This document shows positions 1 through 60,117 of a stretch of 64,000 nucleotides of DNA, in pieces. Under the pieces are notes generated by a model. That model was not told the DNA's origin. It saw nothing but the letters and a program-made list of their open reading frames with translations, and searched no databases. Origin of the DNA: Escherichia coli (GTDB lineage Bacteria > Pseudomonadota > Gammaproteobacteria > Enterobacterales > Enterobacteriaceae); the NCBI RefSeq assembly GCF_050920415.1, contig NZ_CP169309.1, one strand, 5' to 3'. The translations under genes were made by a program, and so were the position numbers. Numbering within the stretch: the first letter of the stretch is position 1; each line of letters starts with the position of its first letter.

Positions 1-1731
1 AGCCATACTTTGTACCAGCAGGCCGTGGATACGCGCCTGCGGCCAGGCCATTTTTACGCGATCGAAAATAGCATTTGCGGCTTGCTGGACTTCATTGGCT
101 GTACGCAAGTAGAGCATGACGCCCTGAACTTCTGATTTATGTGGAATATCCGGCGAGCGTAATTTTAGTGCCACCGGATAACCAATCTGTTCGGCAATAT
201 GCACAGCCTCGGTGCTGTCAGTGGCAATCCAGGTGGGAAGTGTGTTCATGCCGTACGCTTGCAGGATAGGCTGAACTTCATGGGTATCGAGCGACGTTGC
301 CCCTTCGACAATGGCCTGTTGCAACAGAAGATGCGCTTCTGCGGTATTAGAGGTCAGATTGCTGGGCAACGCCGGCGTTTCGCGTAGTTGCTTCTGATTA
401 CGCCGGTACTCCACCATATGCATAAAAGCGGTGATGGTTCCTTCCGGGGTGCGGTAGGTCGGCAGCCCGGCTTCGCTGAATAAACGTCGTGCCTCTTGCG
501 AGGAGTGCTCGCCGCACCAGTTCGTCAGCAGAGAAACATACTTGCTGCGGGGATGATGCTTTACCGCTTCAATTAATGCATGTGCGCTTTCTGTTGCGGG
601 AGCAGCGGCGCTGGGCGAATGAATAACCATCAGCGCATCAAAATCCTGACTGTGGAGCAGAATATCCAGCGTTTTAATATAATGCTCACTACTGGCGTCA
701 TCACGAAGATCGAGCGGGTTAGAGATTGCCACATGTTCTGGCAGTGCATCGCGCAATTTCTGGCAGGTTTCTTCACTGAGCGTAGCCAGCTTGCCATTGC
801 GTGACCATAAGGCATCCAGCGCCAGTGCGGCAGGTGCTGCACCGTTGCTGATAATCATCAGCCGCTCTCCACGTAGCGGGCGCATATGGCTAAGGGTTTC
901 GACTGCCGAAAACAGCTCGTGGGTATCCTGTACTCGCAACAAACCGGCGCGCTGAATAGCTGCATCCCAAGCAGGATCCATTCCTGCCGTGGTGTTCAGT
1001 AGTCGTTGCGCCGCCGGGCTACGTCCACTTTTAATCACCAGAATCGGTTTATTACGTGAGGCGCTACGTGCAGCCGAAACAAAACGTCGCGCATCACTTA
1101 ATTGTTCGAGGTAGAGCAGGATTGCACTGGTTTTGCTGTCGCGCGCCAGATAATCGAGCAATTCATCAACGTCGATATCCAGGCTGTCGCCGAGAGCAAT
1201 AAAGTAGGAAAAGCCCATTTCCCGCTGTTGTGCCCAGTCGAGGATGGTATTGGAGACGGCGGCAGACTGCGAAATAAACGCCAGTTTGCCGCGTTTAATC
1301 GGTACAGGCGAAAAGCTGGCATTCAGGCCTTGCCAGGGGGCCAGTAATCCCAGACTGTTTGGCCCCAGCAGACGCATGTTATGGCGCAGGGCGCAGGCGC
1401 GGAGATCTTCGTGTTGCGATACCGGGGCGGAAAGAATAATGCAGGTTTTACAGCCTTTCTCGCCGAGCTCTTCCAGAAGAGCAAGATTGCGGCTGGCATT
1501 GGTACATAAAACCGCAAGATCGGGTGTAAAGGGCAGGCTGGCAATATCCGGCCAGGCCAACACACCCAACACCGCTTTCCAGGCAGGCGTCACCGGGAGT
1601 ACCGGCCCGTTAAATCCCCCCGCCAGCAGGTTACGCATCATCAGATAACCTGCGCGATTGGGTTTCATCGATGCGCCAATTACCGCAATCGATTTTGGTC
1701 GCAGTAATGCTTCCAGTCCTCGCTGACTCAT
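1..1731 (-). CDS. patZ: Protein lysine acetyltransferase PatZ/Pka, N-terminal ~577 codons; 3' end lies beyond window start
   Basis: Reverse-strand translation from ATG at 1731 reads MSQRGLEALLRPKSIAVIGASMKPNRAGYLM, matching PatZ N-terminus; GGGAGA SD upstream; ORF runs off the window edge so it is absent from the ORF track. Confidence 0.85.
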   Translation of the reverse strand, partial: MSQRGLEALLRPKSIAVIGASMKPNRAGYLMMRNLLAGGFNGPVLPVTPAWKAVLGVLAWPDIASLPFTPDLAVLCTNASRNLALLEELGEKGCKTCIILSAPVSQHEDLRACALRHNMRLLGPNSLGLLAPWQGLNASFSPVPIKRGKLAFISQSAAVSNTILDWAQQREMGFSYFIALGDSLDIDVDELLDYLARDSKTSAILLYLEQLSDARRFVSAARSASRNKPILVIKSGRSPAAQRLLNTTAGMDPAWDAAIQRAGLLRVQDTHELFSAVETLSHMRPLRGERLMIISNGAAPAALALDALWSRNGKLATLSEETCQKLRDALPEHVAISNPLDLRDDASSEHYIKTLDILLHSQDFDALMVIHSPSAAAPATESAHALIEAVKHHPRSKYVSLLTNWCGEHSSQEARRLFSEAGLPTYRTPEGTITAFMHMVEYRRNQKQLRETPALPSNLTSNTAEAHLLLQQAIVEGATSLDTHEVQPILQAYGMNTLPTWIATDSTEAVHIAEQIGYPVALKLRSPDIPHKSEVQGVMLYLRTANEVQQAANAIFDRVKMAWPQARIHGLLVQSMA

Positions 1732-1762
1732 ATCGGTCTCCCGCAGAAGTGACCGAATGATT

Positions 1763-2461
1763 TTAAACGCTTTCTAACTGTTCTGCTGTGATGCTACCCA
1801 GATGTTGCGTTTTTCCTGCCAGATAGCGTGTTTTAAAGCGGGTGAAATACTCGCCTAGACCTGCCGCCGCTCCGGTATCGCCGGCCATATCTAACAGTGC
1901 GATGGCAACTTCGGCAGTGCAGTATTGGCCTTCAGCCTGGGCTTCACGCAGGCGATAGGCAGATAGCCGGGAAAGATCGACGGAAATGACGGGGAGATTA
2001 TCCAGATACGGACTTTTACGAAACATCTTGCGAGCTTCCGGCCAGGTACCATCGAGCATGATAAACAGCGGTGGCTTACCAGCAGGTGGTGTAAAAATCA
2101 CTTCCCGTTGTTCATTAGCATATGAGGCAGGGAAGACCACCACCGGTTGATAATCCGGGTTTTGTACCAGAGCCAGCAAATCCTGCGAGGGTTCGGTACG
2201 GGACCATTGAAACGCGACGGTATTTGGCAAGATATCGGCAATCAGACGCCCGGTGTTACTGGGCTTCATTGGCTCGGTGTCGAACATCAGCAAACAAAAG
2301 CGACTTTTAGCTTCCGCTGGAGTAATTGTCGAACAGAGACATAATTTCTCTGGCAAAAGACAGCGTTGGCAGCGACGAACGCGATTACCGCGGGCAAGAA
2401 AAGGACGTGTTGCGCGCGCAATACGCTCGGCGCGTAACTGGAGAACAGCGTTTTCGGTCAT
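1763..2461 (-). CDS. yfiP: DTW-domain tRNA-uridine aminocarboxypropyltransferase (YfiP/TapT), 232 aa
   Basis: ORF 1763..2527; DTW motif (LDGTWPEARKMF); start set at internal ATG (MTENAVLQLRAER) to match known length. Confidence 0.85.
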   Translation of the reverse strand: MTENAVLQLRAERIARATRPFLARGNRVRRCQRCLLPEKLCLCSTITPAEAKSRFCLLMFDTEPMKPSNTGRLIADILPNTVAFQWSRTEPSQDLLALVQNPDYQPVVVFPASYANEQREVIFTPPAGKPPLFIMLDGTWPEARKMFRKSPYLDNLPVISVDLSRLSAYRLREAQAEGQYCTAEVAIALLDMAGDTGAAAGLGEYFTRFKTRYLAGKTQHLGSITAEQLESV

Positions 2462-2529
2462 AAGAGAGCGTCGAAAAAACGCCATTGTCGCAGAGGAGAA
2501 AACGGGGCACAAGATGCACCCCGACAAGA

Positions 2530-2949
2530 TTAAAGCGATTCGTTCAGCCAGCTATCGAAAGGTGCTTTTGGTACTGCGCCATTAAGCATGTCGACAACCT
2601 GACCGTTTTTGAAAATCATGATTGTCGGAATGCTACGAATACCAAAGCGGCTGCTTAATTCACGTTCAGCTTCGGTATTCACTTTCACAAAGCGCACTTT
2701 ACCGCTACGCTCTTGCGCAACATCTTCAAAAATTGGTGCGAAATTACGGCAGGGGCCGCACCACGGCGCCCAGAAGTCGATCACCACAGGCAGATCATCT
2801 TTCAGCAATTTATCGAGCGTTTCACCGGTCGCATTAATCACCTCTCCGTCAAACAAGTCGTGACCGCAGCGTCCGCATTTTGCCGCATCTTCGATCCGAT
2901 CGTCGGGAATGCGATTGATGGCCTGACAATGGGTACAAACGGTATTCAT
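2530..2949 (-). CDS. trxC: Thioredoxin 2
   Basis: 139-aa ORF with N-terminal Zn-finger cysteines (CTHC..CGRC) and WAPWCGPCR active site. Confidence 0.95.
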
Positions 2950-3155
2950 AACTAACCTCGGGATGAGTAAGGAGACTTATCGGCAACGACGCCGGTATGT
3001 TTCTAATATGTTACATATTATCGGGGACATTGTTCCAGACAACAATCTGTTTTATTCAATAGGTATGATAGTCGCAGGCTTTGGTACGAAATCATGGCGA
3101 ACCGCGCGCACTTCGGGTAATCTGCGCGCTTCGCGCAGCGCTGGTGGAGAAAAGC

Positions 3156-4193
3156 ATGAACGATGAGATGAAAGGTAAAAGCGGCAAGGTCAAAGTGATG
3201 TATGTCCGCAGTGATGATGATTCTGATAAACGTACCCATAACCCGCGTACCGGGAAAGGGGGCGGGCGTCCAGGAAAATCTCGTGCCGACGGTGGCCGTC
3301 GCCCCGCCCGCGATGACAAACAAAGTCAGCCCCGTGACCGCAAGTGGGAAGAGTCTCCGTGGCGCACGGTTTCCCGCGCGCCGGGTGATGAGACGCCGGA
3401 AAAGGCCGATCACGGTGGCATCAGTGGTAAAAGTTTTATTGATCCGGAAGTGTTGCGTCGTCAGCGTGCGGAAGAAACCCGCGTCTACGGCGAAAACGCC
3501 TGTCAGGCACTGTTCCAGAGCCGCCCCGAAGCGATTGTTCGCGCCTGGTTTATTCAGAGCGTAACGCCACGTTTTAAAGAAGCATTGCGCTGGATGGCGG
3601 CAAACCGCAAAGCGTATCATGTGGTGGATGAAGCGGAACTGACCAAAGCGTCAGGCACGGAACATCACGGCGGCGTTTGCTTCCTGATCAAAAAGCGTAA
3701 CGGTACAACCGTGCAGCAGTGGGTAAGTCAGGCAGGTGCGCAGGATTGTGTACTGGCACTGGAAAACGAATCTAACCCGCATAACCTGGGTGGCATGATG
3801 CGCAGTTGCGCGCACTTCGGCGTGAAAGGCGTTGTGGTGCAGGATGCGGCGTTGCTGGAATCCGGTGCGGCTATCCGTACCGCAGAAGGCGGTGCAGAGC
3901 ATGTTCAGCCGATTACTGGCGACAACATTGTTAACGTGCTGGATGACTTCCGCCAGGCGGGTTACACCGTAGTGACCACCTCCAGCGAGCAGGGTAAACC
4001 GCTGTTCAAAACCAGTCTGCCAGAGAAAATGGTGCTAGTGCTGGGTCAGGAATATGAAGGGTTACCGGATGCCGCACGCGATCCGAACGATTTGCGCGTG
4101 AAGATTGACGGAACTGGCAATGTTGCCGGGCTGAATATCTCTGTTGCAACCGGCGTTTTGCTTGGCGAATGGTGGCGTCAGAACAAAGCCTGA
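3156..4193 (+). CDS. yfiF: SpoU/TrmH-family RNA 2'-O-methyltransferase YfiF with basic low-complexity N-terminal extension
   Basis: ORF 3081..4193; start at ATG 3156 ([11 protein letters not shown]) preceded by GGTGGAGA; C-terminal SpoU-like domain. Confidence 0.85.
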
Positions 4194-4200
4194 TAAATCA

Positions 4201-4231
4201 GCCGGGTGGCAATTCTGCCATCCGGCGTTTT
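4201..4231. terminator. Hairpin between convergent yfiF and ung (bidirectional terminator)
   Basis: gccgggtggcaattctgccatccggc stem-loop followed by T-run. Confidence 0.6.
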
Positions 4232-4240
4232 CCCTTAAAT

Positions 4241-4930
4241 TTACTCACTCTCTGCCGGTAATACTGGCATCCAGTCAATCGGTTTCTCGCCACGTTGTTC
4301 CAGCCACTGATTTGCCAGCACAAAATGATTGCAGCCAAAGAATCCACGATGTGCAGAAAGCGGCGATGGATGCGGCGCTTTCAGTACGTGGTGGCGTTGC
4401 TTATCTATAATCGCCCCTTTCTTTTGCGCATGTGATCCCCACAACAAAAACACCACGCCTTCGCGGTGCTGGTTAATCAGGCTGATGACTTTGTCGGTGA
4501 AGGTCTCCCAACCGAGGCTGGCGTGGGAATGCGCCTGACCTGCGCGAACCGTCAAGACGGTATTGAGCAGCAAAACGCCCTGACGCGCCCAGCTCTCAAG
4601 ATAGCCATGATCAGGGCGGGTAAAGCCGGGAATGGTATTTTCCAACTCTTTATACATATTCAGTAATGACGGAGGAATGGCGATTCCGGGACGAACAGAA
4701 AATGCCAGACCATGCGCTTGCCCGGGGCCATGATAGGGGTCCTGACCGAGGATCACGACTTTGACATCGCCCAACTCGGTAAAGCGAAAGGCGTTAAAGA
4801 CATCTTTTTGTGGTGGATAGATAGTGATGCCGGACTGCCGCTCGCTGGCGACGGTTTGAAGGGTATTAAGGAAATAGGGTTGTTGCTTCTCTTCAGCCAG
4901 CACGTCATGCCAGGTTAATTCGTTAGCCAT
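4241..4930 (-). CDS. ung: Uracil-DNA glycosylase
   Basis: 229-aa [27 protein letters not shown]... with [18 protein letters not shown] motif. Confidence 0.97.
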
Positions 4931-5060
4931 CTCGCTCTCCTGCGAATTTTCAATCCGCCTAGCTTAACTGCTTCTTTCTACAGAACAAAACCAAGCTCAT
5001 TTTTTAGACTTTAATGAGTGCAAAAAAATGTAAATTGGTAAAATTTCACACCCGTATAAG

Positions 5061-5127
5061 TTGATGTAAAACAATAAAATCCATTTGCGACCACACTTGA
5101 TGCGTGGTTTTTATTGATTTAAATCAA
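5061..5127 (+). promoter_or_regulatory. grcA promoter region with two FNR-type boxes (TTGATgtaaAACAA at ~5061-5074; TTGATttaaATCAA at ~5114-5127)
   Basis: Perfect TTGAT-N4-ATCAA palindrome about 120 nt upstream of grcA ATG, second half-conserved box ~53 bp further upstream; grcA is known to be FNR-activated. Confidence 0.6.
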
Positions 5128-5234
5128 TGAATCAAGGGTGTTTGAGGAGTATATATACACTCAAGCAACAATGGTTTTACCAATTGGCCGCGACAGGCTA
5201 AACAAATCAAATAATTTTGCCGGGGAGGCATCAC

Positions 5235-5618
5235 ATGATTACAGGTATCCAGATTACTAAAGCTGCTAATGACGATCTGCTGAACTCTTTCTGGCTGCTG
5301 GACAGCGAAAAAGGCGAAGCGCGTTGCATCGTTGCGAAAGCAGGTTTTGCAGAAGACGAAGTGGTTGCAGTAAGCAAACTGGGTGACATTGAATACCGTG
5401 AAGTTCCAGTAGAAGTTAAACCAGAAGTTCGCGTTGAAGGTGGTCAGCACCTGAACGTAAACGTTCTGCGTCGTGAAACTCTGGAAGATGCAGTTAAGCA
5501 TCCGGAAAAATATCCGCAGCTGACCATCCGTGTATCCGGTTATGCAGTTCGCTTTAACTCTCTGACTCCGGAACAGCAGCGCGATGTTATCGCTCGTACC
5601 TTTACTGAAAGCCTGTAA
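5235..5618 (+). CDS. grcA: Glycyl-radical autonomous cofactor (pyruvate formate-lyase repair protein)
   Basis: 127 aa from ATG 5235 ([14 protein letters not shown]...) with C-terminal RVSGYAVRF glycyl-radical motif; GGGGAGG SD. Confidence 0.95.
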
Positions 5619-5640
5619 GGTTTAAGTAGCAAGTTACTAA

Positions 5641-5671
5641 GCGGAAGAGGGCGACCTCTTCCGCTTTTTTT
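5641..5671. terminator. Bidirectional rho-independent terminator between grcA and eamB
   Basis: gcggaagagg-gcga-cctcttccgc hairpin followed by T7 run. Confidence 0.7.
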
Positions 5672-5673
5672 CA

Positions 5674-6261
5674 TTAACAGAAAATGCGCACCGCGCAATA
5701 GACCAGCAACAACGCCAGCACGATATTTAACTGGCGACCATACTGGCGAAACAATCGCTGAAACAGATGCCCCGCCAGCGCCCAGCACACATTGCCAAAG
5801 GTCCCAATCATTGCCAGCAAAACGCTGACGCCAATCACCCAGCTTAACGCCTGCGTTTGTGGCAGGACAAATGTCGACAGTGCTGTAATGCCGTACAAAA
5901 TAATTTTGACGTTCACAAACTGCAAAGCAAAGCTGGCCCAGAAGCTGATCGGTTTGGCCTGAAGTCCGTCTTCCTTGGTTGGACTGGTAGCGATTTTCCA
6001 CGCCAGCCAGACAATATATGCCGCTCCTGCCCAACTCAAAAGGTGCACCGCTGCCGGGTCAATAACAGCCAGTGAAAATGAAATTCCTGCACACAGTAAC
6101 ATCACAATCAAAAATCCCAGACTCATCCCTGCCAGCACGTGGGTACTCCGACGAAATCCATGCGACGTGGCAGAGCTAAGAGCGAGTATATTGTTTGGTC
6201 CTGGCGTCAGGGCGGTAATCAGGGTGTAGGTCCAAAAAGCACTTAAAAGGGTCGGTGTCAC
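5674..6261 (-). CDS. eamB: LysE/RhtB-family cysteine/O-acetylserine exporter
   Basis: 195-aa hydrophobic ORF, length and position match eamB (yfiK). Confidence 0.9.
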   Translation of the reverse strand: MTPTLLSAFWTYTLITALTPGPNNILALSSATSHGFRRSTHVLAGMSLGFLIVMLLCAGISFSLAVIDPAAVHLLSWAGAAYIVWLAWKIATSPTKEDGLQAKPISFWASFALQFVNVKIILYGITALSTFVLPQTQALSWVIGVSVLLAMIGTFGNVCWALAGHLFQRLFRQYGRQLNIVLALLLVYCAVRIFC

Positions 6262-6363
6262 TTGTTATCTCCTCTGTTTTGGTAGACAGTACCCGACACA
6301 AAACATTTAAAAAAATGAATGTTTTAACATTCTAAATTCGATATTTTCGATAGGTTTGGGGTT

Positions 6364-7245
6364 ATGGATCTGCGCCGTTTTATTACGCTTAAAACCGTGG
6401 TGGAAGAGGGTTCCTTTTTGCGAGCTTCGCAAAAATTGTGCTGCACACAATCGACGGTGACTTTTCATATTCAGCAGCTTGAACAGGAGTTCTCAGTACA
6501 ATTGTTTGAGAAAATTGGTCGACGCATGTGCCTCACTCGCGAAGGCAAAAAGTTGCTGCCGCACATCTATGAACTCACCAGAGTGATGGATACGCTTCGT
6601 GAGGCTGCCAAAAAAGAGTCTGATCCGGACGGAGAACTGCGCGTTGTTTCAGGCGAAACGCTGCTCTCTTACCGAATGCCGCAGGTGTTGCAGCGTTTTC
6701 GGCAACGTGCACCAAAAGTGCGTTTATCACTGCAGTCGCTGAACTGTTACGTGATCCGTGATGCTCTACTGAATGATGAGGCCGACGTCGGTGTTTTTTA
6801 TCGCGTAGGAAATGATGATGCTCTGAATCGACGAGAATTGGGTGAACAATCGCTGGTGCTGGTGGCTTCACCGCAAATTGCAGATGTCGATTTTACCCAG
6901 CCGGGAAGACATAACGCCTGTAGTTTTATTATCAACGAACCGCAATGTGTCTTCCGGCAGATATTTGAGAGCACGCTGCGCCAGCGGCGGATCACGGTGG
7001 AAAATACCATTGAGCTTATAAGTATCGAAAGCATAAAGCGTTGTGTCGCGGCGAATATCGGAGTTAGCTATCTGCCGCGTTTTGCGGTGGCAAAAGAGTT
7101 GGAGTGCGGAGAATTAATCGAATTGCCTTTTGGCGAACAGTCGCAGACCATTACGGCAATGTGCGCACACCATGCCGGGAAAGCGGTTAGCCCGGCGATG
7201 CACACTTTTATTCAGTGTGTTGAAGAGTGTTTTTTGCCGGGATAA
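6364..7245 (+). CDS. yfiE: LysR-family transcriptional regulator YfiE
   Basis: 293-aa ORF with N-terminal HTH (LRRFITLKTVVEEGSFLRASQKL) and LysR substrate-binding region. Confidence 0.9.
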   Translation: MDLRRFITLKTVVEEGSFLRASQKLCCTQSTVTFHIQQLEQEFSVQLFEKIGRRMCLTREGKKLLPHIYELTRVMDTLREAAKKESDPDGELRVVSGETLLSYRMPQVLQRFRQRAPKVRLSLQSLNCYVIRDALLNDEADVGVFYRVGNDDALNRRELGEQSLVLVASPQIADVDFTQPGRHNACSFIINEPQCVFRQIFESTLRQRRITVENTIELISIESIKRCVAANIGVSYLPRFAVAKELECGELIELPFGEQSQTITAMCAHHAGKAVSPAMHTFIQCVEECFLPG

Positions 7246-7303
7246 AAATAATGCCGGGCTTAAACCCGGCACCCAACTTGTCGACGAAGTGCGTTTTGTT
7301 CAT

Positions 7304-7401
7304 GCCGGATGCGGCGTGAACGCCTTATCCGGCCTACAAGATCGTGCAAATTCAATATATTGCATGAGCCATGTAGGCCTGATAAGCGTAGCGCATCAGG
7401 C
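7304..7401. repeat. BIME: inverted pair of REP elements, flanked by two copies of a ccgggcttaaacccgg hairpin (7253-7270 and 7426-7449)
   Basis: gccggatgcggcgtgaacgccttatccggcctac and inverted gtaggcctgataagcgtagcgcatcaggc; typical REP consensus. Confidence 0.85.
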
Positions 7402-7453
7402 AGTTTTGCGTTTGCCAGCACTTTTAATTCCGGGCTTAAACCCGGAATTAAGA

Positions 7454-8788
7454 TCACTCTTCTGTCGTTTGCGGTGGTACGCCTGTTCCGCTTGGTTTGC
7501 GTCGCTTACCAATATTTTTGGTATCGCGATGGCGTTTTTTCACCCGTGGCTTCTCTTTCTCTTTAGCCTTTTTCTTCTCGGCGCGTTTTGCCAGTACTTT
7601 CTTCGATGGCTTGCCGGTCTGCTTCTCGCTTGGCGCACGCGTTTTCGGGCGTAACTCATCAATTACGCGAGCTTTAATTGGCTCTTCAATATAACGGCCT
7701 ACTTTGCCCAGCAGCAGATGGTCATGAGCTTCAACCAGTGAAATCGCGGTTCCCTTACGACCAGCGCGAGCAGTACGTCCGATACGGTGTAAATAAGTAT
7801 CGCCACTGCGTGGCATATCGAAGTTAAAGACATGGCTGACATCCGGAATGTCGATACCGCGCGCGGCAACATCAGTGGCAACCAGTACGTTAACGCGACC
7901 TTCGGTCAGACGCTTGATCGCTTCGTTACGCTTGCCTTGTACCATCTCACCTTCGAGATAGCAGTTGTTGATGCCCGCTTCGCGCAGCCAGTTTGCCAAC
8001 TCATGCACACGCTCACGCTTACGCACAAATACAATTGAGCGGGTCGCTTCCGGTTGTTTTAACAGATGCACCAGTAATGCGGTTTTATGTTCCAGGTCAT
8101 CAGCGCGGTAATACCACTGATGAATCTTTTTGCGCTCACGGGTGGATGGATTCGCAGAAACTTCCACCGGATCTTCAAGCAGACGCTCGGCAAAATCCTG
8201 AATGGCATCGCCTTCAAGCGTTGCCGAGAAGAACAGAGTCTGTTTACGCCAGCGCGTTTCGCCCGCAATATGTTCGATATCCTGAGCAAAACCCATATCC
8301 AGCATTCGGTCTGCTTCGTCGAGGATCAGCGTTTCAACCGCGCGGCAATCGAAGTTCTCTTCTTTTATGTATTGCAGCAGACGTCCGGTCGTGGCAACCA
8401 CGATATCCTGGTTTTCGCTGAATACTTCCGCGTGGTTCATATAGGCTACGCCGCCGGTGATGGTGGCGATATCCAGATGCGTATGTTTCGCCAGTTCGCG
8501 GGCATGATCGGCCACCTGCATCGCCAATTCGCGAGTCGGGGTGAGGATCAAAATACGCGGCGGACCGGATTTCTTACGGGGAAAATCGAGCAGGTGCTGC
8601 AACGCTGGCAGCAGATACGCCGCCGTTTTACCGGTGCCTGTCGGCGCAGAACCGAGTACATCACGGCCATCGAGCGCAGGCGGAATGGCGGCAGCCTGAA
8701 TGGCGGTCGGGCGAGTGAAACCTTTATCCTGGAGGGCTTCCAGCAGGCTTTCGTCGAGTTCAAGTTCGGAAAAAGTCGTTACAGTCAT
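7454..8788 (-). CDS. srmB: DEAD-box ATP-dependent RNA helicase SrmB
   Basis: 444-aa ORF with GTGKT (Walker A), DEAD, SAT and [10 protein letters not shown] motifs and K/R-rich C-terminal tail. Confidence 0.95.
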
Positions 8789-8919
8789 GTTCTACCTCTG
8801 TGTGGGGCGCTGATTATAGACGTTACGGCTGCAATCTTCATCTGTTTGTATGGATATCGCTTCTCGGGTATTGTTCTCACCCGGTGCTATCGCCGTTTTT
8901 CCTGCAAGGTTTTATTTTC

Positions 8920-9657
8920 ATGTCACAGTCTACATCCGTGCTTCGTCGTAATGGATTTACTTTTAAACAGTTTTTTGTTGCTCACGATCGCTGTGCGATG
9001 AAAGTGGGAACGGATGGCATTTTGCTGGGCGCATGGGCACCGGTGGCTGGGGTAAAACGTTGCCTTGATATCGGCGCGGGTAGCGGGTTGCTGGCATTAA
9101 TGCTGGCGCAGCGAACCGATGACAGCGTGATGATTGATGCCGTTGAACTGGAAGGTGAAGCTGCGACTCAGGCGCAGGAAAATATCAACCAGTCCCCTTG
9201 GGCAGAGCGGATTAATATCTATCCGGCGGATATTCAGCAGTGGATCACCCAGCAGACAGCACGCTTTGATTTAATCATCAGTAACCCGCCTTATTATCAG
9301 CAGGGCGTTGAGTGCGCTACGCCGCAGAGGGAACAGGCACGCTATACCACTACGCTTGATCATCAATCGTTGCTAACCTGCGCGGCGGAGTGCATTACTG
9401 AAGAGGGATTTTTTTGCGTGGTGTTGCCAGAGCAGATTGGTAATGGTTTTACTGAACTGGCATTAAGAATGGGCTGGCATTTACGTTTACGGACGGATGT
9501 GGCGGAAAACGAAACGCGACAGCCGCATCGGGTGCTGCTGGCATTCTCCCCACAGGCGGGAGAATGCTATAGCGATCGCTTAGTGATTCGTGGGCCAGAC
9601 CAGAGCTATTCCGAAGCGTACACTGCGCTGACCCAGGCTTTTTATTTGTTTATGTAA
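8920..9657 (+). CDS. yfiC: tRNA (adenine37-N6)-methyltransferase TrmN6 (YfiC)
   Basis: ORF 8800..9657; start at ATG 8920 ([13 protein letters not shown]) gives 245 aa; NPPY methyltransferase motif (IISNPPYY). Confidence 0.85.
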
Positions 9658-11264
9658 AGGTTGTCGGGGGAAAGGATCGATGGGCCAGAGTGAGTGAGCA
9701 ACTCCGGGTAATCCAGCGTGAAATGCAGCCCCCGGCTCTCCTTGCGCACCATCGCACAGCGAACAATCAACTCGGCAACCTGTACCAGATTACGCAGCTC
9801 CAGCAAATTATTTGATACGCGGAAATGGGCGTAATATTCGTCTATTTCCTGCTGAAGCATATTGATCCGCCGCAGGGCGCGTTCCAGACGTTTCGTTGTG
9901 CGCACAATGCCGACGTAATCCCACATAAACAGACGTAGCTCGTGCCAGTTATGTTGAATCACCACCAGTTCGTCAGGGTTCTCAACACGGCTTTCATCCC
10001 ACGGCGGTAACGTACTGACGTCGTGGGCATAAGGCATACGCCTGGTAATATCCTCCGCCGCCGACCAGCCGTAAACCAGACACTCCAGTAATGAATTTGA
10101 GGCCATGCGGTTAGCGCCGTGTAAGCCGGTATAACTCACTTCGCCAATGGCGTACAAACCTTCGACGTCCGTACGCCCATGATCATCAACCATTACACCA
10201 CCGCAGGTATAGTGTGCAGCAGGCACAATCGGCACAGGGCCTTTCGTGAGATCAATCCCCAGTCCCAATAACTTTTCATAAATCATCGGGAAATGCTGAC
10301 GAATAAAATCGGCAGGCTTATGGCTGATGTCGAGATACATACAATCCGCACCGAGGCGTTTCATTTCATGATCAATAGCGCGGGCGACAATATCGCGCGG
10401 GGCCAGTTCGCCGCGCTCATCGAAATCGGGCATAAAACGCGTGCCATCCGGGCGCTTGAGATAAGCACCTTCGCCGCGCAGTGCTTCCGTTAACAGGAAA
10501 TTTCGTGCCTGTGGGTGATAGAGCGCGGTAGGGTGAAACTGATTAAATTCGAGATTGGCGACCCGGCAGCCCGCGCGCCACGCCATAGCAATGCCATCGC
10601 CAGAAGAAATATCCGGATTGGTGGTGTACTGATAAACCTTCGACGCACCGCCGGTTGCCAGCACAACCGCTTTTGCGTGGCAGGTTTCAACCGTTTCTTT
10701 ATTTCGGTTCCATACCCACGCGCCTACAACTCGTCGCGTGCCCGGCAGGCCAATTTTGTCAGAGACAATCAGATCAACCGCGTTGCTGCGCTCCAGCACG
10801 CGAATATTCGGATGGTTCTGCGCCTTGCTCACTAGGGTGGTTTCTACTTCTTTACCGGTGGCGTCCGCAGCATGAAGAATTCGTCGGTGACTATGTCCAC
10901 CTTCACGGGTCAAATGGTAACTTTCTTCGCCATTCGATTGAACGTGGGTATCAAACAACACCCCCTGGTCGATTAACCATTGCACACAGGAACGCGCATT
11001 GCTGGCGACAAATTCAACTGCATGGCGATCACAAATACCAGCACCGGCTATCATTGTGTCTTCCACATGCGAATCAATGCTGTCAGTTTCATCAAACACG
11101 GCGGCAATTCCGCCCTGGGCATAAAATGTTGAACCTTCCGTGACTGGGCCTTTACTTAGAACGATGACATGATGCCGATCAGCCAGACGTAGCGCCAGTG
11201 AAAGCCCGGCAGCGCCGCTACCGATAATCAACACGTCACATGAATGTTCAGGGAGAGTATTCAT
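9642..11264 (-). CDS. nadB: L-aspartate oxidase
   Basis: 540-aa ORF with N-terminal FAD-binding GSGAAGLS motif; 3' end overlaps yfiC 3' end by 16 nt. Confidence 0.95.
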
Positions 11265-11270
11265 TTTCTT

Positions 11271-11288
11271 TGTTTAATTTACTAAACA
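11271..11288. promoter_or_regulatory. NadR-type operator (TGTTTA-N6-TAAACA) immediately upstream of nadB
   Basis: tgtttaatttactaaaca palindrome 7 nt upstream of nadB start codon. Confidence 0.6.
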
Positions 11289-11561
11289 CGGTTTGGTCAG
11301 CATAGCATCATGTTGTGCGATTAAACACCTGCTATTTTAATTTTTGTTACAGAGGCTAAACAGACCGAATCACGGCGACGAGAAAACGAGAAGTTACTGG
11401 CTGGCGAAGGATTAGGTGGTGAAATAAAAAGGCCGTTGGGTTACTCTTCAGGCAGTTAAATGGGCATTTCTACACAGATAATGCGATGTTCAGATTCTGT
11501 AGACTTATAATGATAGATAATGATCCGTCTACAGCATGACAAACAAAAACAGATGCGTTAC

Positions 11562-11589
11562 GGAACTTTACAAAAACGAGACACTCTAA
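11562..11589 (+). promoter_or_regulatory. Sigma-E dependent promoter of rpoE (autoregulated P2-type)
   Basis: GGAACTT -16 nt- TCTAA, matching the sigma-E -35/-10 consensus, ~85 nt upstream of rpoE ATG. Confidence 0.7.
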
Positions 11590-11615
11590 CCCTTTGCTTG
11601 CTCAAATTGCAGCTA

Positions 11616-11675
11616 ATGGAGTGGCGTTTCGATAGCGCGTGGAAATTTGGTTTGGGGAGACTTTACCTCGGATGA
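11616..11675 (+). CDS. rseD: 19-codon leader ORF (rseD-type) translationally coupled to rpoE via ATGA overlap
   Basis: atg gag tgg cgt ttc ... ctc gga TGA, with the stop overlapping the rpoE ATG (ggATGAgc). Confidence 0.55.
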   Translation: MEWRFDSAWKFGLGRLYLG

Positions 11676-12247
11676 GCGAGCAGTTAACGGACCAGGTCCT
11701 GGTTGAACGGGTCCAGAAGGGAGATCAGAAAGCCTTTAACTTACTGGTAGTGCGCTATCAGCATAAAGTGGCGAGTCTGGTTTCCCGCTATGTGCCGTCG
11801 GGTGATGTTCCCGATGTGGTACAAGAAGCTTTTATTAAAGCCTATCGTGCGCTGGATTCGTTCCGGGGAGATAGCGCTTTTTATACATGGCTGTATCGGA
11901 TTGCTGTAAATACAGCGAAAAATTACCTGGTTGCTCAGGGACGCCGTCCACCTTCCAGTGATGTGGATGCCATTGAAGCTGAAAACTTCGAAAGTGGCGG
12001 CGCGTTGAAAGAAATTTCGAACCCTGAGAACTTAATGTTGTCAGAAGAACTGAGACAGATAGTTTTCCGAACTATTGAGTCCCTCCCGGAAGATTTACGC
12101 ATGGCAATAACCTTGCGGGAGCTGGATGGCCTGAGCTATGAAGAGATAGCCGCTATCATGGATTGTCCGGTAGGTACGGTGCGTTCACGTATCTTCCGAG
12201 CGAGGGAAGCTATTGATAACAAAGTTCAACCGCTTATCAGGCGTTGA
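11672..12247 (+). CDS. rpoE: RNA polymerase sigma-E (sigma-24) factor
   Basis: 191 aa from ATG 11672 (MSEQLTDQVLVERVQKGDQKAFNLLV...), ECF sigma regions 2 and 4. Confidence 0.97.
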   Translation: MSEQLTDQVLVERVQKGDQKAFNLLVVRYQHKVASLVSRYVPSGDVPDVVQEAFIKAYRALDSFRGDSAFYTWLYRIAVNTAKNYLVAQGRRPPSSDVDAIEAENFESGGALKEISNPENLMLSEELRQIVFRTIESLPEDLRMAITLRELDGLSYEEIAAIMDCPVGTVRSRIFRAREAIDNKVQPLIRR

Positions 12248-12279
12248 CGATAGCGGGATACTGGATAAGGGTATTAGGC

Positions 12280-12930
12280 ATGCAGAAAGAACAACTTTCC
12301 GCTTTAATGGATGGCGAAACGCTGGATAGTGAGCTGCTTAACGAACTGGCTCATAACCCAGAAATGCAGAAAACCTGGGAAAGCTATCACTTAATCCGTG
12401 ACTCAATGCGGGGTGATACTCCCGAGGTGCTCCATTTCGATATCTCTTCACGCGTAATGGCCGCCATTGAAGAAGAGCCAGTACGTCAACCGGCGACACT
12501 GATCCCAGAGGCCCAGCCTGCGCCGCATCAATGGCAGAAAATGCCATTCTGGCAGAAAGTACGTCCATGGGCTGCACAGCTTACCCAAATGGGCGTAGCA
12601 GCATGCGTATCGCTTGCAGTTATCGTTGGCGTCCAGCACTATAATGGGCAATCTGAAACGTCCCAGCAGCCCGAAACGCCAGTATTTAATACACTGCCGA
12701 TGATGGGTAAAGCCAGCCCGGTTAGCCTGGGAGTACCTTCTGAAGCGACTGCAAATAATGGTCAACAGCAGCAGGTACAGGAGCAGCGTCGTCGCATTAA
12801 TGCTATGTTGCAGGATTACGAACTGCAACGTCGACTCCACTCTGAACAGCTTCAGTTTGAGCAGGCCCAAACCCAGCAAGCCGCTGTACAGGTGCCAGGA
12901 ATTCAAACTTTAGGAACGCAATCGCAGTAA
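12280..12930 (+). CDS. rseA: Anti-sigma-E factor RseA
   Basis: 216 aa from ATG 12280 (MQKEQLSALMDGETLDSELL...), single TM segment, Q-rich C-terminus. Confidence 0.95.
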   Translation: MQKEQLSALMDGETLDSELLNELAHNPEMQKTWESYHLIRDSMRGDTPEVLHFDISSRVMAAIEEEPVRQPATLIPEAQPAPHQWQKMPFWQKVRPWAAQLTQMGVAACVSLAVIVGVQHYNGQSETSQQPETPVFNTLPMMGKASPVSLGVPSEATANNGQQQQVQEQRRRINAMLQDYELQRRLHSEQLQFEQAQTQQAAVQVPGIQTLGTQSQ

Positions 12931-13886
12931 TGAAGCAACTTTGGTTTGCCATGTCATTAGTGACAGGTAGCCTGTTATTCTCTGCTAACGCCTCGGCCAC
13001 TCCCGCGTCCGGGGCGTTATTACAGCAGATGAACCTGGCCAGTCAGTCACTGAATTACGAGCTGTCATTCATCAGCATCAATAAACAGGGTGTTGAGTCT
13101 CTGCGTTATCGACATGCACGCCTCGATAACCGTCCTCTTGCACAATTGTTGCAAATGGATGGCCCGCGCCGGGAAGTGGTACAGCGCGGCAATGAAATCA
13201 GCTACTTTGAACCGGGCCTTGAACCGTTCACGCTTAATGGCGATTACATTGTTGATTCTCTGCCATCGCTCATCTATACCGATTTCAAACGCCTTTCTCC
13301 TTACTACGACTTTATCTCCGTGGGACGCACGCGTATTGCTGATCGTCTTTGCGAAGTCATTCGCGTGGTGGCCCGTGATGGCACACGCTACAGCTACATC
13401 GTGTGGATGGACACCGAATCGAAATTACCGATGCGGGTTGATCTCCTTGATCGCGATGGTGAAACGCTGGAACAATTTCGCGTGATTGCTTTTAACGTTA
13501 ATCAGGATATCAGCAGCAGTATGCAGACGCTGGCGAAAGCAAATCTGCCGCCGCTGCTTTCTGTTCCTGTAGGTGAAAAAGCTAAATTCAGCTGGACGCC
13601 AACCTGGTTGCCACAGGGGTTTAGTGAGGTTTCCAGCAGCCGACGTCCGTTACCGACGATGGACAACATGCCTATCGAATCACGTCTCTATTCCGACGGA
13701 TTATTCAGCTTCTCGGTAAACGTTAACCGCGCTACGCCATCGAGCACCGATCAGATGTTGCGCACCGGACGCAGAACCGTCAGTACAAGCGTACGTGATA
13801 ACGCCGAAATCACCATTGTCGGCGAACTGCCGCCGCAAACGGCGAAACGCATTGCCGAGAATATTAAGTTCGGGGCAGCGCAATGA
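12930..13886 (+). CDS. rseB: Sigma-E regulatory protein RseB (periplasmic)
   Basis: 318-aa ORF with signal peptide, start overlaps rseA stop (TAATG). Confidence 0.95.
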   Translation: MKQLWFAMSLVTGSLLFSANASATPASGALLQQMNLASQSLNYELSFISINKQGVESLRYRHARLDNRPLAQLLQMDGPRREVVQRGNEISYFEPGLEPFTLNGDYIVDSLPSLIYTDFKRLSPYYDFISVGRTRIADRLCEVIRVVARDGTRYSYIVWMDTESKLPMRVDLLDRDGETLEQFRVIAFNVNQDISSSMQTLAKANLPPLLSVPVGEKAKFSWTPTWLPQGFSEVSSSRRPLPTMDNMPIESRLYSDGLFSFSVNVNRATPSSTDQMLRTGRRTVSTSVRDNAEITIVGELPPQTAKRIAENIKFGAAQ

Positions 13887-14362
13887 TCAAAGAGTGGGCT
13901 ACGGTCGTCTCCTGGCAAAACGGGCAGGCGCTGGTCAGTTGTGATGTTAAAGCCTCATGCAGCAGCTGTGCTTCTCGTGTCGGTTGCGGTAGCCGCGTGC
14001 TGAATAAACTTGGCCCACAAACCACGCATACCATTGTCGTACCCTGTGATGAACCGTTAGTGCCGGGGCAAAAAGTGGAATTAGGAATCGCCGAGGGCAG
14101 CCTGCTTAGCTCCGCATTACTGGTTTATATGTCGCCGTTGGTGGGATTATTCCTCATCGCTTCGTTATTTCAGCTACTCTTTGCTTCAGATATTGCAGCA
14201 TTATGCGGTGCGATTCTCGGCGGCGTTGGTGGATTCCTGATTGCACGCGGCTACTCGCGAAAGTTTGCTGCCCGGGCGGAATGGCAACCGATCATCTTAA
14301 GCGTGGCATTGCCGCCAGGCCTTGTGCGATTTGAAACATCTTCGGAAGACGCGAGCCAGTGA
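13883..14362 (+). CDS. rseC: RseC (SoxR-reducing system component-like membrane protein)
   Basis: 159-aa ORF, overlaps rseB stop; cysteine-rich N-terminus plus TM segments. Confidence 0.9.
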   Translation: MIKEWATVVSWQNGQALVSCDVKASCSSCASRVGCGSRVLNKLGPQTTHTIVVPCDEPLVPGQKVELGIAEGSLLSSALLVYMSPLVGLFLIASLFQLLFASDIAALCGAILGGVGGFLIARGYSRKFAARAEWQPIILSVALPPGLVRFETSSEDASQ

Positions 14363-14559
14363 TTTCACTGGCTTTGTTGCATTTTGCATAACAAATGCGA
14401 GGACGTTTCCAGATACCACAATCCATACCGTATGAACATTTCCTCGCCTCAATGTTGTAGTGTAGAATGCGGCGTTTCTATTAATACAGACGTTAAGCTC
14501 AGAACAGCGACTTCTAAAAGCCTGGTTAACCGGGCATTAAGGCACAATAATCATACTTT

Positions 14560-16359
<1,800 letters not shown>

Positions 16360-17400: not shown

Positions 17401-17591
17401 TATGAGATAAATCTCCCGTGGCTAACGACATCCCCCGTCGTTGTGTATAGAATATTCCCCCGAAGTTTAAGGTTGGCACCTCCAGGTTGCCACGGCACAC
17501 GAAACAGCGTTGGTCCCCATATACCGGTAAACTGAAACTGCAGCGAAGCAGTTAGCAGAGCCATGTATATCAGGTCTGTTTCGTGTGCTGA

Positions 17592-19204
<1,613 letters not shown>

Positions 19205-21084: not shown

Positions 21085-21170
21085 TAAAAAGTAAAACCCC
21101 CGAACTGGTAAGGAACGGGGGTTTTACTTTACAACTTTAATTTTGTGCAGCACGCACCCTCAATGAGAGC
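21085..21170 (-). ncRNA. ohsC: Putative OhsC antisense sRNA (antitoxin of ShoB); boundaries approximate
   Basis: Known shoB-ohsC locus between acpS and yfhL; segment 21145-21164 is a 19/20 direct repeat of shoB 5'UTR segment 21393-21412, so a minus-strand transcript here would pair with the shoB leader; terminator at 21091-21130 fits a minus-strand 3' end. Confidence 0.45.
21091..21130. terminator. Bidirectional rho-independent terminator (acpS on + strand; likely also ohsC on - strand)
   Basis: aaaacccccg-N14-cgggggtttt hairpin flanked by A-run upstream and T-run downstream. Confidence 0.7.
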
Positions 21171-30361: not shown

Positions 30362-30548
30362 AGTGGCTCATTCACCGACTTATGTCAGCCCCTTCGGGAC
30401 GTGCTACATAAAATTCGAATGACGCACAACAAGGTGCCTGCCGTCCAACTTCTGATATCAGCTTAGCTATATCAACCCTCGGGCGAAACGTCGAGTTAGG
30501 CACCGCCTTATTCCATAACAAAGCCGGGTCATTCCCGGCTTTGTTGTA
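30362..30548 (+). ncRNA. glmY: GlmY small RNA (regulator of glmS via GlmZ/RapZ)
   Basis: Starts AGTGGCTCATTCACCGACTTATGTCAGCCCC as recalled for GlmY; ends at aagccgggtcattcccggctt hairpin plus U-rich tail; lies between purL and glrK. Confidence 0.8.
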
Positions 30549-36193: not shown

Positions 36194-37447
36194 ATGTTAA
36201 AGCGTGAAATGAACATTGCCGATTATGATGCCGAACTGTGGCAGGCTATGGAGCAGGAAAAAGTACGTCAGGAAGAGCACATCGAACTGATCGCCTCCGA
36301 AAACTACACCAGCCCGCGCGTAATGCAGGCGCAGGGTTCTCAGCTGACCAACAAATATGCTGAAGGTTATCCGGGCAAACGCTACTACGGCGGTTGCGAG
36401 TATGTTGATATCGTTGAACAACTGGCGATCGATCGCGCGAAAGAACTGTTCGGCGCTGACTACGCTAACGTCCAGCCGCACTCCGGCTCCCAGGCGAACT
36501 TTGCGGTCTACACCGCGCTGCTGGAACCCGGCGACACCGTTCTGGGTATGAACCTGGCGCATGGCGGTCACCTGACTCACGGTTCTCCGGTTAACTTCTC
36601 CGGTAAACTGTACAACATCGTTCCTTACGGTATCGATGCTACCGGTCATATCGACTACGCCGATCTGGAAAAACAAGCCAAAGAACACAAGCCGAAAATG
36701 ATCATCGGTGGCTTCTCTGCATATTCCGGCGTGGTTGACTGGGCGAAAATGCGTGAAATCGCTGACAGCATCGGTGCTTACCTGTTCGTTGATATGGCGC
36801 ACGTTGCGGGACTGGTCGCTGCTGGCGTCTACCCGAACCCGGTTCCTCATGCTCACGTAGTGACTACCACCACTCACAAAACCCTGGCGGGTCCGCGCGG
36901 CGGCCTGATCCTGGCGAAAGGCGGTAGCGAAGAACTGTACAAAAAACTGAACTCTGCCGTTTTCCCTGGTGGTCAGGGCGGCCCGTTGATGCACGTAATC
37001 GCTGGTAAAGCGGTTGCTCTGAAAGAAGCGATGGAACCTGAGTTCAAAACTTACCAACAGCAGGTCGCGAAAAACGCTAAAGCGATGGTAGAAGTATTCC
37101 TGGAGCGCGGTTACAAAGTGGTTTCCGGCGGTACTGATAACCACCTGTTCCTGGTTGATCTGGTTGATAAAAACCTGACCGGTAAAGAAGCTGACGCCGC
37201 TTTGGGCCGTGCTAACATCACCGTTAACAAAAACAGCGTACCGAACGATCCGAAGAGCCCGTTTGTAACCTCCGGTATTCGCGTGGGTACTCCGGCGATT
37301 ACACGTCGTGGCTTTAAAGAAGCCGAAGCGAAAGAACTGGCTGGCTGGATGTGTGACGTGCTGGACAGCATCAATGATGAAGCCGTTATCGAGAGCATCA
37401 AAGGTAAAGTTCTCGATATCTGCGCACGTTACCCGGTTTACGCATAA
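36194..37447 (+). CDS. glyA: Serine hydroxymethyltransferase
   Basis: 417 aa from ATG 36194 ([22 protein letters not shown]...), PLP-lysine motif TTTTHKTL. Confidence 0.97.
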
Positions 37448-37486
37448 GCGAAACGGTGATTTGCTGACAATGTGCTCGTTGTTCAT

Positions 37487-37584
37487 GCCGGATGCGGCGT
37501 GAACGCCTTATCCGGCCTACAAATTATTGCAAATTCAAGATATTGCAATCTCCGTGTAGGCCTGATAAGCGTAGCGCATCAGGC
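37487..37584. repeat. BIME: inverted pair of REP elements downstream of glyA, followed by bidirectional terminator hairpin (~37605-37628)
   Basis: gccggatgcggcgtgaacgccttatccggcctac ... gtaggcctgataagcgtagcgcatcaggc, nearly identical to the BIME at 7304-7401; caaggcttcc-ttag-ggaagccttg hairpin. Confidence 0.85.
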
Positions 37585-37644
37585 AATTTTTCGTTTGTGA
37601 TCATCAAGGCTTCCTTAGGGAAGCCTTGTTACGTTATCGTGCCA

Positions 37645-47885: not shown

Positions 47886-47895
47886 TTTATAAAAT

Positions 47896-47925
47896 GCCGG
47901 ATAAGGCGTTCACGCCGCATCCGGC
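47896..47925. repeat. REP element between yphB and yphA
   Basis: gccggataaggcgttcacgccgcatccggc. Confidence 0.75.
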
Positions 47926-47932
47926 ATCTTTC

Positions 47933-48355
47933 CTAACGCCGATCGAGAGAAATTGCCCCCGGCCCGGTAATTGCCAACAGCAGGAATGCGCCAGCGATAC
48001 TGACATTCTTCCAGAAATTAATCATATTTGGCCCAACCGCATCGCCGGTCATATCCCAGTAATGGTGACCAATCACCGCCGTACCCAGCGTGTAGAAAAT
48101 AAACAGCACCGCCAGCGGACGGGTGAAAAAGCCAAGCACGATTAAAATCGCGGCGGGCACTTCCATAACTACCGCAATAATCGCTGCCAGCATCGGCATT
48201 GGCGCGCCCAGCGAGGCCATATATTGGACCGTACCGTCAAAGCCCATCATTTTGGGAAAACCAAAAATAATGAAAATTAAGACCACGGCGATACGGGCAA
48301 TTAATAACAAAACGGGGCGGGCAGCACCAAAATCAAAATAACGTAGTGTGTTCAT
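47933..48355 (-). CDS. yphA: DoxX-family inner membrane protein YphA
   Basis: ORF 47933..48400 (GTG); start at ATG 48355 gives 140 aa; four predicted TM helices. Confidence 0.8.
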
Positions 48356-48451
48356 AACCAATCCCTTTGCAAGATAATGTGATTTAAACGTAATACACAC
48401 TCTGGTACCTCGCCACGCCCCAGGCGTTGAGATATTCGCTAATTATCCTGG

Positions 48452-60002: not shown

Positions 60003-60117
60003 AAGATAACAAGATATTAGAATCAGGCCGGGGCGTCTCGCGCTCCGTAAACACGGTCGTACATCCAGCCGGTAGCCTGGTTCCTTGCATTGAGTGATGT
60101 ACGGAGTTTATAGAGCA

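Follow-up and report, generated by a model that had tools for sequence, protein, structure and literature searches.

A duplicated terminator hairpin flanks a BIME-1 element between yfiE and srmB of Escherichia coli

We analysed a 64,000-nucleotide stretch of Escherichia coli DNA (NCBI RefSeq assembly GCF_050920415.1, contig NZ_CP169309.1; hereafter the window), in which a bacterial interspersed mosaic element (BIME) built of repetitive extragenic palindromes (REPs) lies between the convergent genes yfiE and srmB, with a copy of the same hairpin on each side. The hairpin pair is very probably a target duplication, left by the insertion of a BIME-1 element into a bidirectional terminator shared by the two genes, and not a pair of separate terminators. 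The BIME-1 element itself and its presence/absence polymorphism are textbook E. coli biology. Duplication of a hairpin or terminator around a BIME-1 was not found in the full-text literature searched, which excluded the key BIME papers of the 1990s; if those papers already noted the footprint, the value of the present analysis is its confirmation across thousands of genomes.

The yfiE/srmB element and its filled and empty alleles

The element occupies 151 bp (7274–7424) and is flanked by two 25-nt direct repeats: TAATGCCGGGCTTAAACCCGGCACC on the yfiE side (copy 1, 7249–7273, hairpin stem at 7252–7271) and TAATTCCGGGCTTAAACCCGGAATT on the srmB side (copy 2, 7425–7449, stem at 7424–7451). The two copies are identical at 21 of 25 positions and start 176 nt apart. 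Their common hairpin core, CCGGGCTTAAACCCGG, is found at 7254–7269 and 7430–7445, i.e. as two exact matches in 64 kb where 0.05 are expected by chance. An earlier note on this DNA, made from the sequence alone, had placed a BIME at 7304–7401 between yfiE and srmB with a hairpin on either side, essentially at the coordinates that we find, and the gene names that it gave for this locus and for a second BIME, at glyA/yphH, agree with the annotation of matching E. coli records.

The presence/absence comparison across strains that the same note had proposed reveals a polymorphic insertion: searching 5,426 complete E. coli genomes with positions 7000–7700, we recovered the full-length locus from 2,524 (~47%). 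The other E. coli alleles sampled are exactly 176 bp shorter, which is the start-to-start spacing of the 25-nt units. Their intergenic region measures 32 bp and holds a single hairpin, AATGCCGGGCTTAAACCCGGCATT, in the context ...GGGATAAAAA(C/T)AATGCCGGGCTTAAACCCGGCATTGAGATTACTCTTC..., so that, relative to the ancestral site, the filled allele has gained 151 bp and a further 25-bp stem-loop copy (176 bp in all). Since the shorter alleles differ by these 176 bp and have one hairpin, we conclude that the 151-bp BIME-1 entered the ancestral terminator, with duplication of the entire stem-loop.

For the polarity of the change, we scanned species-representative genomes with YfiE and examined the region downstream of the gene. 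The single-hairpin allele is present in E. albertii, E. whittamii and the E. coli representative of GTDB, and one hairpin also lies between the stop codons in eight Citrobacter loci, in Cedecea and in two further Enterobacteriaceae. The hairpin carries both a 7-nt A-run and a 7-nt T-run in Citrobacter loci L010 and L011, and that of Citrobacter sp. NCU1, AAAAAAATGCCGGGCTAAATTACCCGGCGATTTTTTTA, is a textbook bidirectional intrinsic terminator. As one hairpin is found in every outgroup examined, the single-hairpin state is ancestral. The two separate terminators implied by the earlier note are, as judged by the empty alleles and the outgroups, a duplicated single ancestral terminator.

The host genes are yfiE, encoding a LysR-family regulator (6364–7245, plus strand, stop codon TAA at 7243–7245), and srmB, encoding a DEAD-box RNA helicase (7454–8788, minus strand, stop codon at 7454–7456), both identified from their open reading frames and the annotation of matching records. 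They are convergent, with a spacer of 208 bp. Within it, 7274–7424 is, as judged by sequence, one complete 151-bp BIME-1 on the plus strand, a type of element also named RIP (repetitive IHF-binding palindromic) or RIB (reiterative ihf BIME). It comprises a 30-nt left outer arm (CAACTTGTCGACGAAGTGCGTTTTGTTCAT, 7274–7303; family consensus CAGATTGTTGACAAAGTGCGCTTTGTTCAT), a Y REP (7304–7337), a 35-nt L linker (7338–7372), an inverted 29-nt Z1 REP that starts with GTAG (7373–7401) and a 23-nt right outer arm (AGTTTTGCGTTTGCCAGCACTTT, 7402–7424; family consensus A(A/G)TTTTGCGTTTGTCATCAGTCTC). The Y REP, recognised as an inverted repeat and from the published REP classes, is a palindrome with 14-nt arms that ends in CTAC, and it is identical to the Y REP of other copies. 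All 151 bp align over their full length with a consensus of 25 sites, drawn from the 25–26 independent BIME-1 sites that remained after metagenome contigs had been scanned for the exact linker word TGCAAATTCAANATATTGCA and orthologous duplicates removed. The linker holds the family-wide word TGCAAATTCAATATATTGCA, and Rfam ES036 (CssrF) matches at 7338–7380, above the gathering score. A candidate IHF-type site, ATTCAATATATTG at 7350–7362, is one mismatch away from what we take to be the IHF core consensus, WATCAANNNNTTR.

BIME-1 is defined in the literature as y and z1 REPs, the former an imperfect palindrome of ~35 nt with the GTAG/CTAC tag and the latter of 29 nt (PMC8266576), joined by a long conserved L linker that often contains an IHF site, and is described as occurring 'as single copies'. 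The comparison with the REP classification that the earlier note had called for accordingly assigns the window element, with its Y REP, inverted Z1 REP and L linker, to BIME-1, of which it is a typical member, with a candidate IHF-type site. It also shares with the BIME-1s of E. coli its extragenic position (between the stop codons of yfiE and srmB), location at the 3′ ends of genes, tens of copies per genome (a median of at least 39 matching places per E. coli genome) and presence or absence among strains; 71% of BIME-1 length was reported to lie in strain-specific loops, and Bachellier 1997 is cited for 'excisions' of whole BIME-1s (PMC1187871). At yfiE/srmB the window carries a single unit and not a tandem array of the kind known for BIME-2. 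The NC_000913.3 record used here shows no repeat features at this locus, and a K-12 'RIP' annotation is thus not confirmed; a scan of viral contigs for BIME-1 copies gave no matches. Compared with the BIME-1 literature searched, three features are added here that were not found described there: an entire terminator hairpin duplicated on the two flanks, outer ends that are fixed, and the doubling in tandem taken up below.

The footprint at other BIME-1 loci and possible routes of insertion

At 25 sites we aligned the sequence outside the left end of the element with that outside the right end, using 600 swapped-flank controls, each pairing a left and a right flank of different sites (mean score 13.3, 99th percentile 20). 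A flanking repeat scored above the 99th percentile of the controls at nine sites, with scores of 21–35. The junctions of eight of the nine are stereotyped: the repeat ends 29–32 nt before the Y REP and starts again 23–26 nt after the Z1 REP, and in each case it corresponds to one locus-specific G+C-rich hairpin of 16–26 nt, with no more than three unpaired end bases in the better-kept copy. At 23 of 26 sites the element directly adjoins a stable hairpin (−8 kcal/mol or lower in 34 nt) on at least one side, as compared with 5 and 4 of 26 for controls placed ~100 nt away (Mann–Whitney p = 1e-5); 11 sites have such a hairpin on each side.

For three of the sites with a flanking repeat we retrieved empty alleles from E. 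coli genomes, and all three show one intrinsic terminator when empty and hairpin–element–hairpin when filled. At tkt/prohibitin, the empty allele reads GAGAAGGGCCGCGAAAGCGGCCCTTTTTTTAC and the filled allele AAGGGCCGCAAATGCGGCCCTT^CAGATTG...CAGTCTC^AAGGGCCGCGAAAGCGGCCCTTTTTTAC (^ marks a junction or cut); at yqjF/yqjG and ysgA/metE, the single terminator hairpin of the empty allele stands on both sides of the element in the filled one, with duplications of ~25 bp and ~20 bp, respectively. Across these three further loci the duplication spans 20–26 bp, covering the palindrome from one foot to the other together with its A-T extension, and the U-tract remains with the right-hand copy. The target is the terminator palindrome, the duplication is that palindrome, and the element ends are fixed (CAGATTG...CAGTCTC). 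The consensus ends form an inverted repeat at 14 of 17 positions (TTCAGATTGTTGACAAA / TTGAGACTGATGACAAA). Inspecting eight sites by eye, we saw no consistent pattern in the orientation of the element relative to the U-tract.

How could such a footprint arise? The target may be recognised as a structure, either an extruded hairpin or a cruciform. Both strands would then be broken at opposite feet of the palindrome, amounting to a staggered break of palindrome length (resolution of the cruciform into two hairpin-capped ends, opened later, would be an equivalent route), the BIME-1 would be joined between the ends, and fill-in would copy the palindrome on both sides. Such structure-directed break-and-fill-in is the simplest geometry that yields the arrangement X-P-E-P-Y, in which a palindrome P of variable length stands on both sides of the element E, and we hold it to be a plausible mechanism of insertion, with confidence falling short of even. 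More tentatively still, BIME-1s in general might be ~150-bp elements with fixed ends that home to extruded terminator palindromes and duplicate the whole stem-loop, rather than semi-randomly placed REP pairs.

The same X-P-E-P-Y outcome is expected from the main rival, replicative template switching, in which a nascent strand that has passed the hairpin jumps to a donor BIME-1 and returns upstream, copying the hairpin twice. Polymerases stall at palindromes (PMC3333891 mentions stalling that depends on BIMEs), and this route needs no target-duplicating transposase, which suits the lack of duplications in the Y1 family discussed below. However, in the junctions as read, the ends of the element share no consistent microhomology with the target (at tkt, for example, ...CCCTT^CAGATTG and CAGTCTC^AAGGG), and the element ends are constant at independent loci, where template switching should have left ragged ends and co-copied donor flanks. 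We therefore regard it as possible but rather doubtful.

The usual candidate for REP mobility is TnpA_REP. According to the literature, the Y1 (IS200/IS605-type) family to which it belongs produces no target duplications, and TnpA_REP itself acts on single strands, which it cuts at C^T dinucleotides. The window element has the GTAG/CTAC tags, but it is flanked by a 25-bp duplication and its junctions are T^C and C^A/T, not C^T, which led us to reject them as TnpA_REP cuts. CT dinucleotides located ~2 nt inside each consensus 3′ end are moderately conserved and absent from the window copy. Either host structure-specific nucleases contribute, or the pathway departs from the IS608 paradigm.

Several observations weigh against our overall reading, that of BIME-1 insertion into a terminator with a footprint that recurs elsewhere, and the first concerns the other BIME of the window. 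This second BIME-1 (37457–37605, plus strand, with its core at 37487–37584 between the outer arms) lies downstream of glyA and lacks a duplicated hairpin: a single terminator-like hairpin, AAGGCTTCCTTAGGGAAGCCTT (37606–37627), abuts its right end and is also present in the BIME-less allele. The element is polymorphic, and its empty allele (L174, L175), shorter by 134 bp, shows no duplicated hairpin; the footprint, therefore, does not accompany every copy. In this allele the element is replaced by TAATCTGTTGAAAA, which resembles the element's own left end, GATTTGCTGACAAT, and the allele may be a deletion derivative or reflect a different mode of insertion. Second, 16 of the 25 sites have no significant flanking repeat, which may have decayed or may never have existed there, and the 25-site set, coming from one metagenome scan that required the exact L-linker word, is not a random sample. 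Third, among the 25 individual copies the terminal inverted repeat scores above the 99th percentile of shuffles in no more than five, the window copy not being one of them. Fourth, TnpA_REP does not obviously predict this footprint. Fifth, at yfiE/srmB the distribution of filled and empty alleles is incongruent with relatedness. Finally, what the hairpins and the BIME do at present is something that we infer from their sequences.

Comparison with known systems places the footprint between several classes. REPINs, associated with RAYT/TnpA_REP enzymes (Y1 HUH proteins related to IS200/IS605), likewise consist of two inverted REPs and a spacer, are non-autonomous and carry GTAG/CTAC tags, and their spread is attributed to a domesticated transposase, present in single copy, that works on single-stranded hairpins. 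The IS200/IS605 family makes no target duplication and TnpA_REP cleaves at C^T, as opposed to a structure-defined duplication of 16–26 bp with junctions elsewhere in the present case. Reviews state that REPs 'do not display MITE signatures'. Bacterial MITEs (miniature inverted-repeat transposable elements) such as Correia, ERIC and RUP share with the window element small size, lack of coding capacity, palindromic sequence, presence/absence polymorphism and a flanking target repeat, here a duplication of 25 bp shown against the empty site. MITEs have terminal inverted repeats; in the BIME-1 family the 14-of-17 match is a property of the consensus ends. MITE duplications, in turn, are short and fixed by the transposase, whereas those seen here are 16–26 bp and equal the target palindrome, and individual BIME-1 copies have weak inverted repeats. 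Class C group II introns, integron attC sites and CTX-type folded-strand recombination all have targets chosen by stem-loop structure, not by sequence, and terminators between genes serve as safe havens. To our knowledge, insertion in these systems takes place next to the folded strand or inside it and does not copy the entire stem-loop; the choice of target by structure would be common to them and the BIME-1 case, and duplication of the whole stem-loop particular to the latter.

In the literature searched, a structure-defined target duplication of variable length was not found described for REPs and BIMEs or for any bacterial mobile element. The pairs of filled and empty alleles constrain the mechanism to a structure-specific target, a stagger of palindrome length and defined element ends, all of which are testable. 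The dissemination mechanism of REPs and BIMEs was said in 2021 to remain 'to be elucidated' (PMC8266576), and a 2026 preprint calls it 'not fully established', speaking of 'semi-random insertion'; homing into terminator palindromes, if true, would provide its first concrete footprint. It would also explain why BIME-1s are located in 3′ untranslated regions between a hairpin that lacks a U-tract and the true terminator. The 2026 preprint counts 78 REPs within 306 predicted bidirectional terminators, which agrees with the targeting of terminators here. The recurrent order in 3′ untranslated regions (hairpin without U-tract, BIME, hairpin with U-tract) matters both for the prediction of terminators and for the reported excess of REPs in bidirectional ones.

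History of the insertion and relationship of the two BIMEs

The window and K-12 alleles have identical junctions, which implies one insertion event. Compared with K-12 W3110 over 6900–7800 (L001), the window differs at 5.2% of positions in the yfiE flank and 7.2% in the srmB flank, and by 16% in each hairpin copy; the 98-nt core differs at one base. The BIME core is either constrained or homogenised against other copies. Filled alleles are found in K-12, in the window lineage (~5% divergent) and in two other Escherichia species, with about half of E. coli empty. As noted above, this pattern does not follow relatedness, so secondary precise deletions between the repeats, or recombinational spread, are also needed. 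An old insertion that was spread by homologous recombination, sometimes lost by repeat-mediated deletion, and whose core was homogenised or constrained would fit. The window itself is ~94–96% identical to K-12 and ~94% to Escherichia sp. MOD1-EC7003 (checked over 1–16000 and 37150–37900), is 100% identical to 'E. coli' MFDS1022581 in both 700–750-bp probes and has at most nine records at 99% identity or above; these values indicate a divergent Escherichia lineage near the species boundary.

The repeats do recombine. In Escherichia sp. E1V33 (L008:10880–11270), yfiE/srmB contains three hairpins and two BIME-1s with a 176-bp period, and in E. coli N96 (L173:260–690), yqjF/yqjG likewise has three hairpins and two tandem BIME-1s (the period across both cases is 176–178 bp). 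The flanking duplication evidently lets the unit of BIME-1 plus hairpin amplify by unequal recombination.

Could the filled arrangement be the ancestral one, with one-hairpin alleles produced by a 176-bp deletion through slippage or recombination between the 25-bp repeats? Direct repeats of 25 bp that enclose a foldable palindrome lend themselves well to RecA-independent deletion, and both the tandem doubles and the distribution of alleles are in line with such events. Against this stand the outgroups, every one of which has a single hairpin in the form of a complete bidirectional terminator, and on these we rejected the filled state as ancestral. In addition, the E. coli empty alleles examined carry the unmutated ancestral hairpin and not a chimera of the diverged K-12 copies, and deletion would leave the origin of the repeat unexplained. 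We consider this polarity improbable and retain insertion into a single ancestral terminator.

Two further alleles of the yfiE/srmB element carry insertion sequences. E. coli SI-NP020 (L004:1870–3170) has IS621 (IS110 family) in the BIME, between the GTAG and the GCCTGATAAG of the Z1 REP. In E. coli Yu5 (L005:85–1500) the Y REP loop is interrupted by a frameshifted IS3-family element with a duplication of AAC; this element resembles IS1397 by its target only. The REP-targeting elements IS621 and IS1397 (IS3 family) make secondary insertions into the BIME and did not themselves bring it into the terminator.

Alleles at three other loci, all sites that lack flanking repeats, are uninformative on insertion. 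At uvrB/yvcK we found no empty allele, the site being filled in all E. coli matches listed. The BIME-less allele of katE/chbG (L176:285–330, compared with L072) has an unrelated spacer with a different hairpin, GGTCACGTCCCCTGGGGAGTGACC; here the whole spacer has been replaced, and it is not an empty site. At lafA/fliD of E. coli O152:H23 (L177:330–400, compared with L076), the Y REP alone is joined to the downstream hairpin, and the allele, lacking the L linker, the Z1 REP and the right arm (~84 bp), is a REP singlet as a BIME-1 remnant.

We also considered whether the two BIMEs of the window are specially related, for instance through recent copying or gene conversion across 30 kb. Their REP units are indeed 100% identical: the Y REP GCCGGATGCGGCGTGAACGCCTTATCCGGCCTAC occurs with no mismatches at 7304–7337 and 37487–37520, and the Z1 REP GTAGGCCTGATAAGCGTAGCGCATCAGGC at 7373–7401 and 37556–37584, while the number of matches expected in a shuffled window is 0 for both patterns. 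The two 98-nt cores are identical at 88 positions (89.8%), with all 10 differences falling into the 35-nt spacer; the resemblance runs on beyond the limits given in the earlier note (7304–7401 and 37487–37584), by ~30 nt on the left and ~20 nt on the right, with arms that differ by ~30%. This is family resemblance. Among the 300 pairs that can be formed from the 25 sites, core identity averages 87.0% (range 76–95%), and in 34% of them it equals or exceeds that of the window pair; when the arms are included, the window pair (78.6%) sits at the median, with 52% of pairs at least as similar. For each of the two window copies, several copies at other loci are closer relatives. The core's single difference from K-12, set beside 5–7% in the flanking genes, fits homogenisation among copies generally. 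Given this distribution of identities within the family, we rejected a special kinship of the pair as very unlikely. The earlier note had described the two BIMEs as near-identical with almost the same spacer, naming generic REP similarity as the outcome that would speak against it: the REP part of the description is correct, the spacers differ at 10 of 35 positions, and generic REP-family similarity is what the alignment gives.

Probable present-day roles of the two hairpins

The sole canonical intrinsic-terminator-like site in the interval is on the minus strand at 7240–7273, where hairpin 1 (stem 7273–7250, 10 pairs) reads GGTGCCGGGTTTAAGCCCGGCATT and is followed by the T-rich ATTTTTATCC. 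This is the only one of the four combinations of hairpin and strand that has a U-tract: hairpin 1 on the plus strand and hairpin 2 on either strand are followed by no T-run, and yfiE has no canonical terminator on its strand. The ancestral Citrobacter hairpin, in contrast, has a U-tract on both strands. As the duplication began at TAAT, the ancestral A-run, which is the U-tract in the srmB sense, stayed with copy 1, and since the only U-tract is that of copy 1 on the minus strand, the canonical terminator of srmB lies beyond the BIME. Transcripts of srmB would thus most likely continue past copy 2 and across the BIME before terminating at copy 1, which would put the BIME within the srmB 3′ untranslated region.

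Even so, selection seems to have kept both hairpin copies as RNA stems of the nearer gene. In the K-12-type allele, copy 1 folds with −12.3 kcal/mol in the yfiE sense (plus strand) versus −8.3 in the srmB sense (minus strand), and copy 2 with −7.6 in the yfiE sense versus −12.9 in the srmB sense; for copy 2 of a sister allele (L061-type) the values are −2.9 and −12.2 kcal/mol, respectively. The substitutions in the K-12- and L061-type alleles are G·U-compatible only in the sense of the nearer gene. Copy 2 of the window carries a double change from G-C to T-A, of which Escherichia sp. MOD1-EC7003 (L009) has only the first, one-sided half. The copies may be kept as RNA stem-loops of the adjacent gene, protecting its 3′ end or acting as pause sites, and the REPs and the putative IHF site may act as they do elsewhere, i.e. 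as an mRNA stabiliser, a partial Rho-dependent attenuator or a protein-binding site.

The statement in the earlier note that each convergent gene has its own terminator is, accordingly, right insofar as both hairpins are kept paired in a strand-specific manner, and fails in that a U-tract accompanies only one of four combinations and none that serves yfiE. That the two hairpins are independent terminators, alike by convergence, is hardly credible: although both are kept paired in the sense of the adjacent gene, they share loop and flank bases (TAAT...CTTAAA...) with each other and with the hairpin of the empty allele, all three copies in Escherichia sp. E1V33 are identical, other BIME-1 sites are bracketed in the same way by other, locus-specific hairpins, three of the four combinations of hairpin and strand lack a U-tract, and one-hairpin empty alleles contradict it.

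Elsewhere in the window, a solitary Y REP, truncated before the CTAC and followed by TTTTATAAAT, lies on the minus strand at 47880–47930, between convergent open reading frames at 47013–47885 (plus strand) and 47933–48400 (minus strand). This REP hairpin takes the form of an intrinsic terminator and in that resembles the 'REPt' elements of the literature. Further Rfam matches above the gathering score (AsrC, rncO, ohsC, GlmY and the iscRS stability element; matches at 13847–14678, 17462–17676, 21088–21164, 30362–30509 and 60007–60116) are as expected for this region of E. coli.

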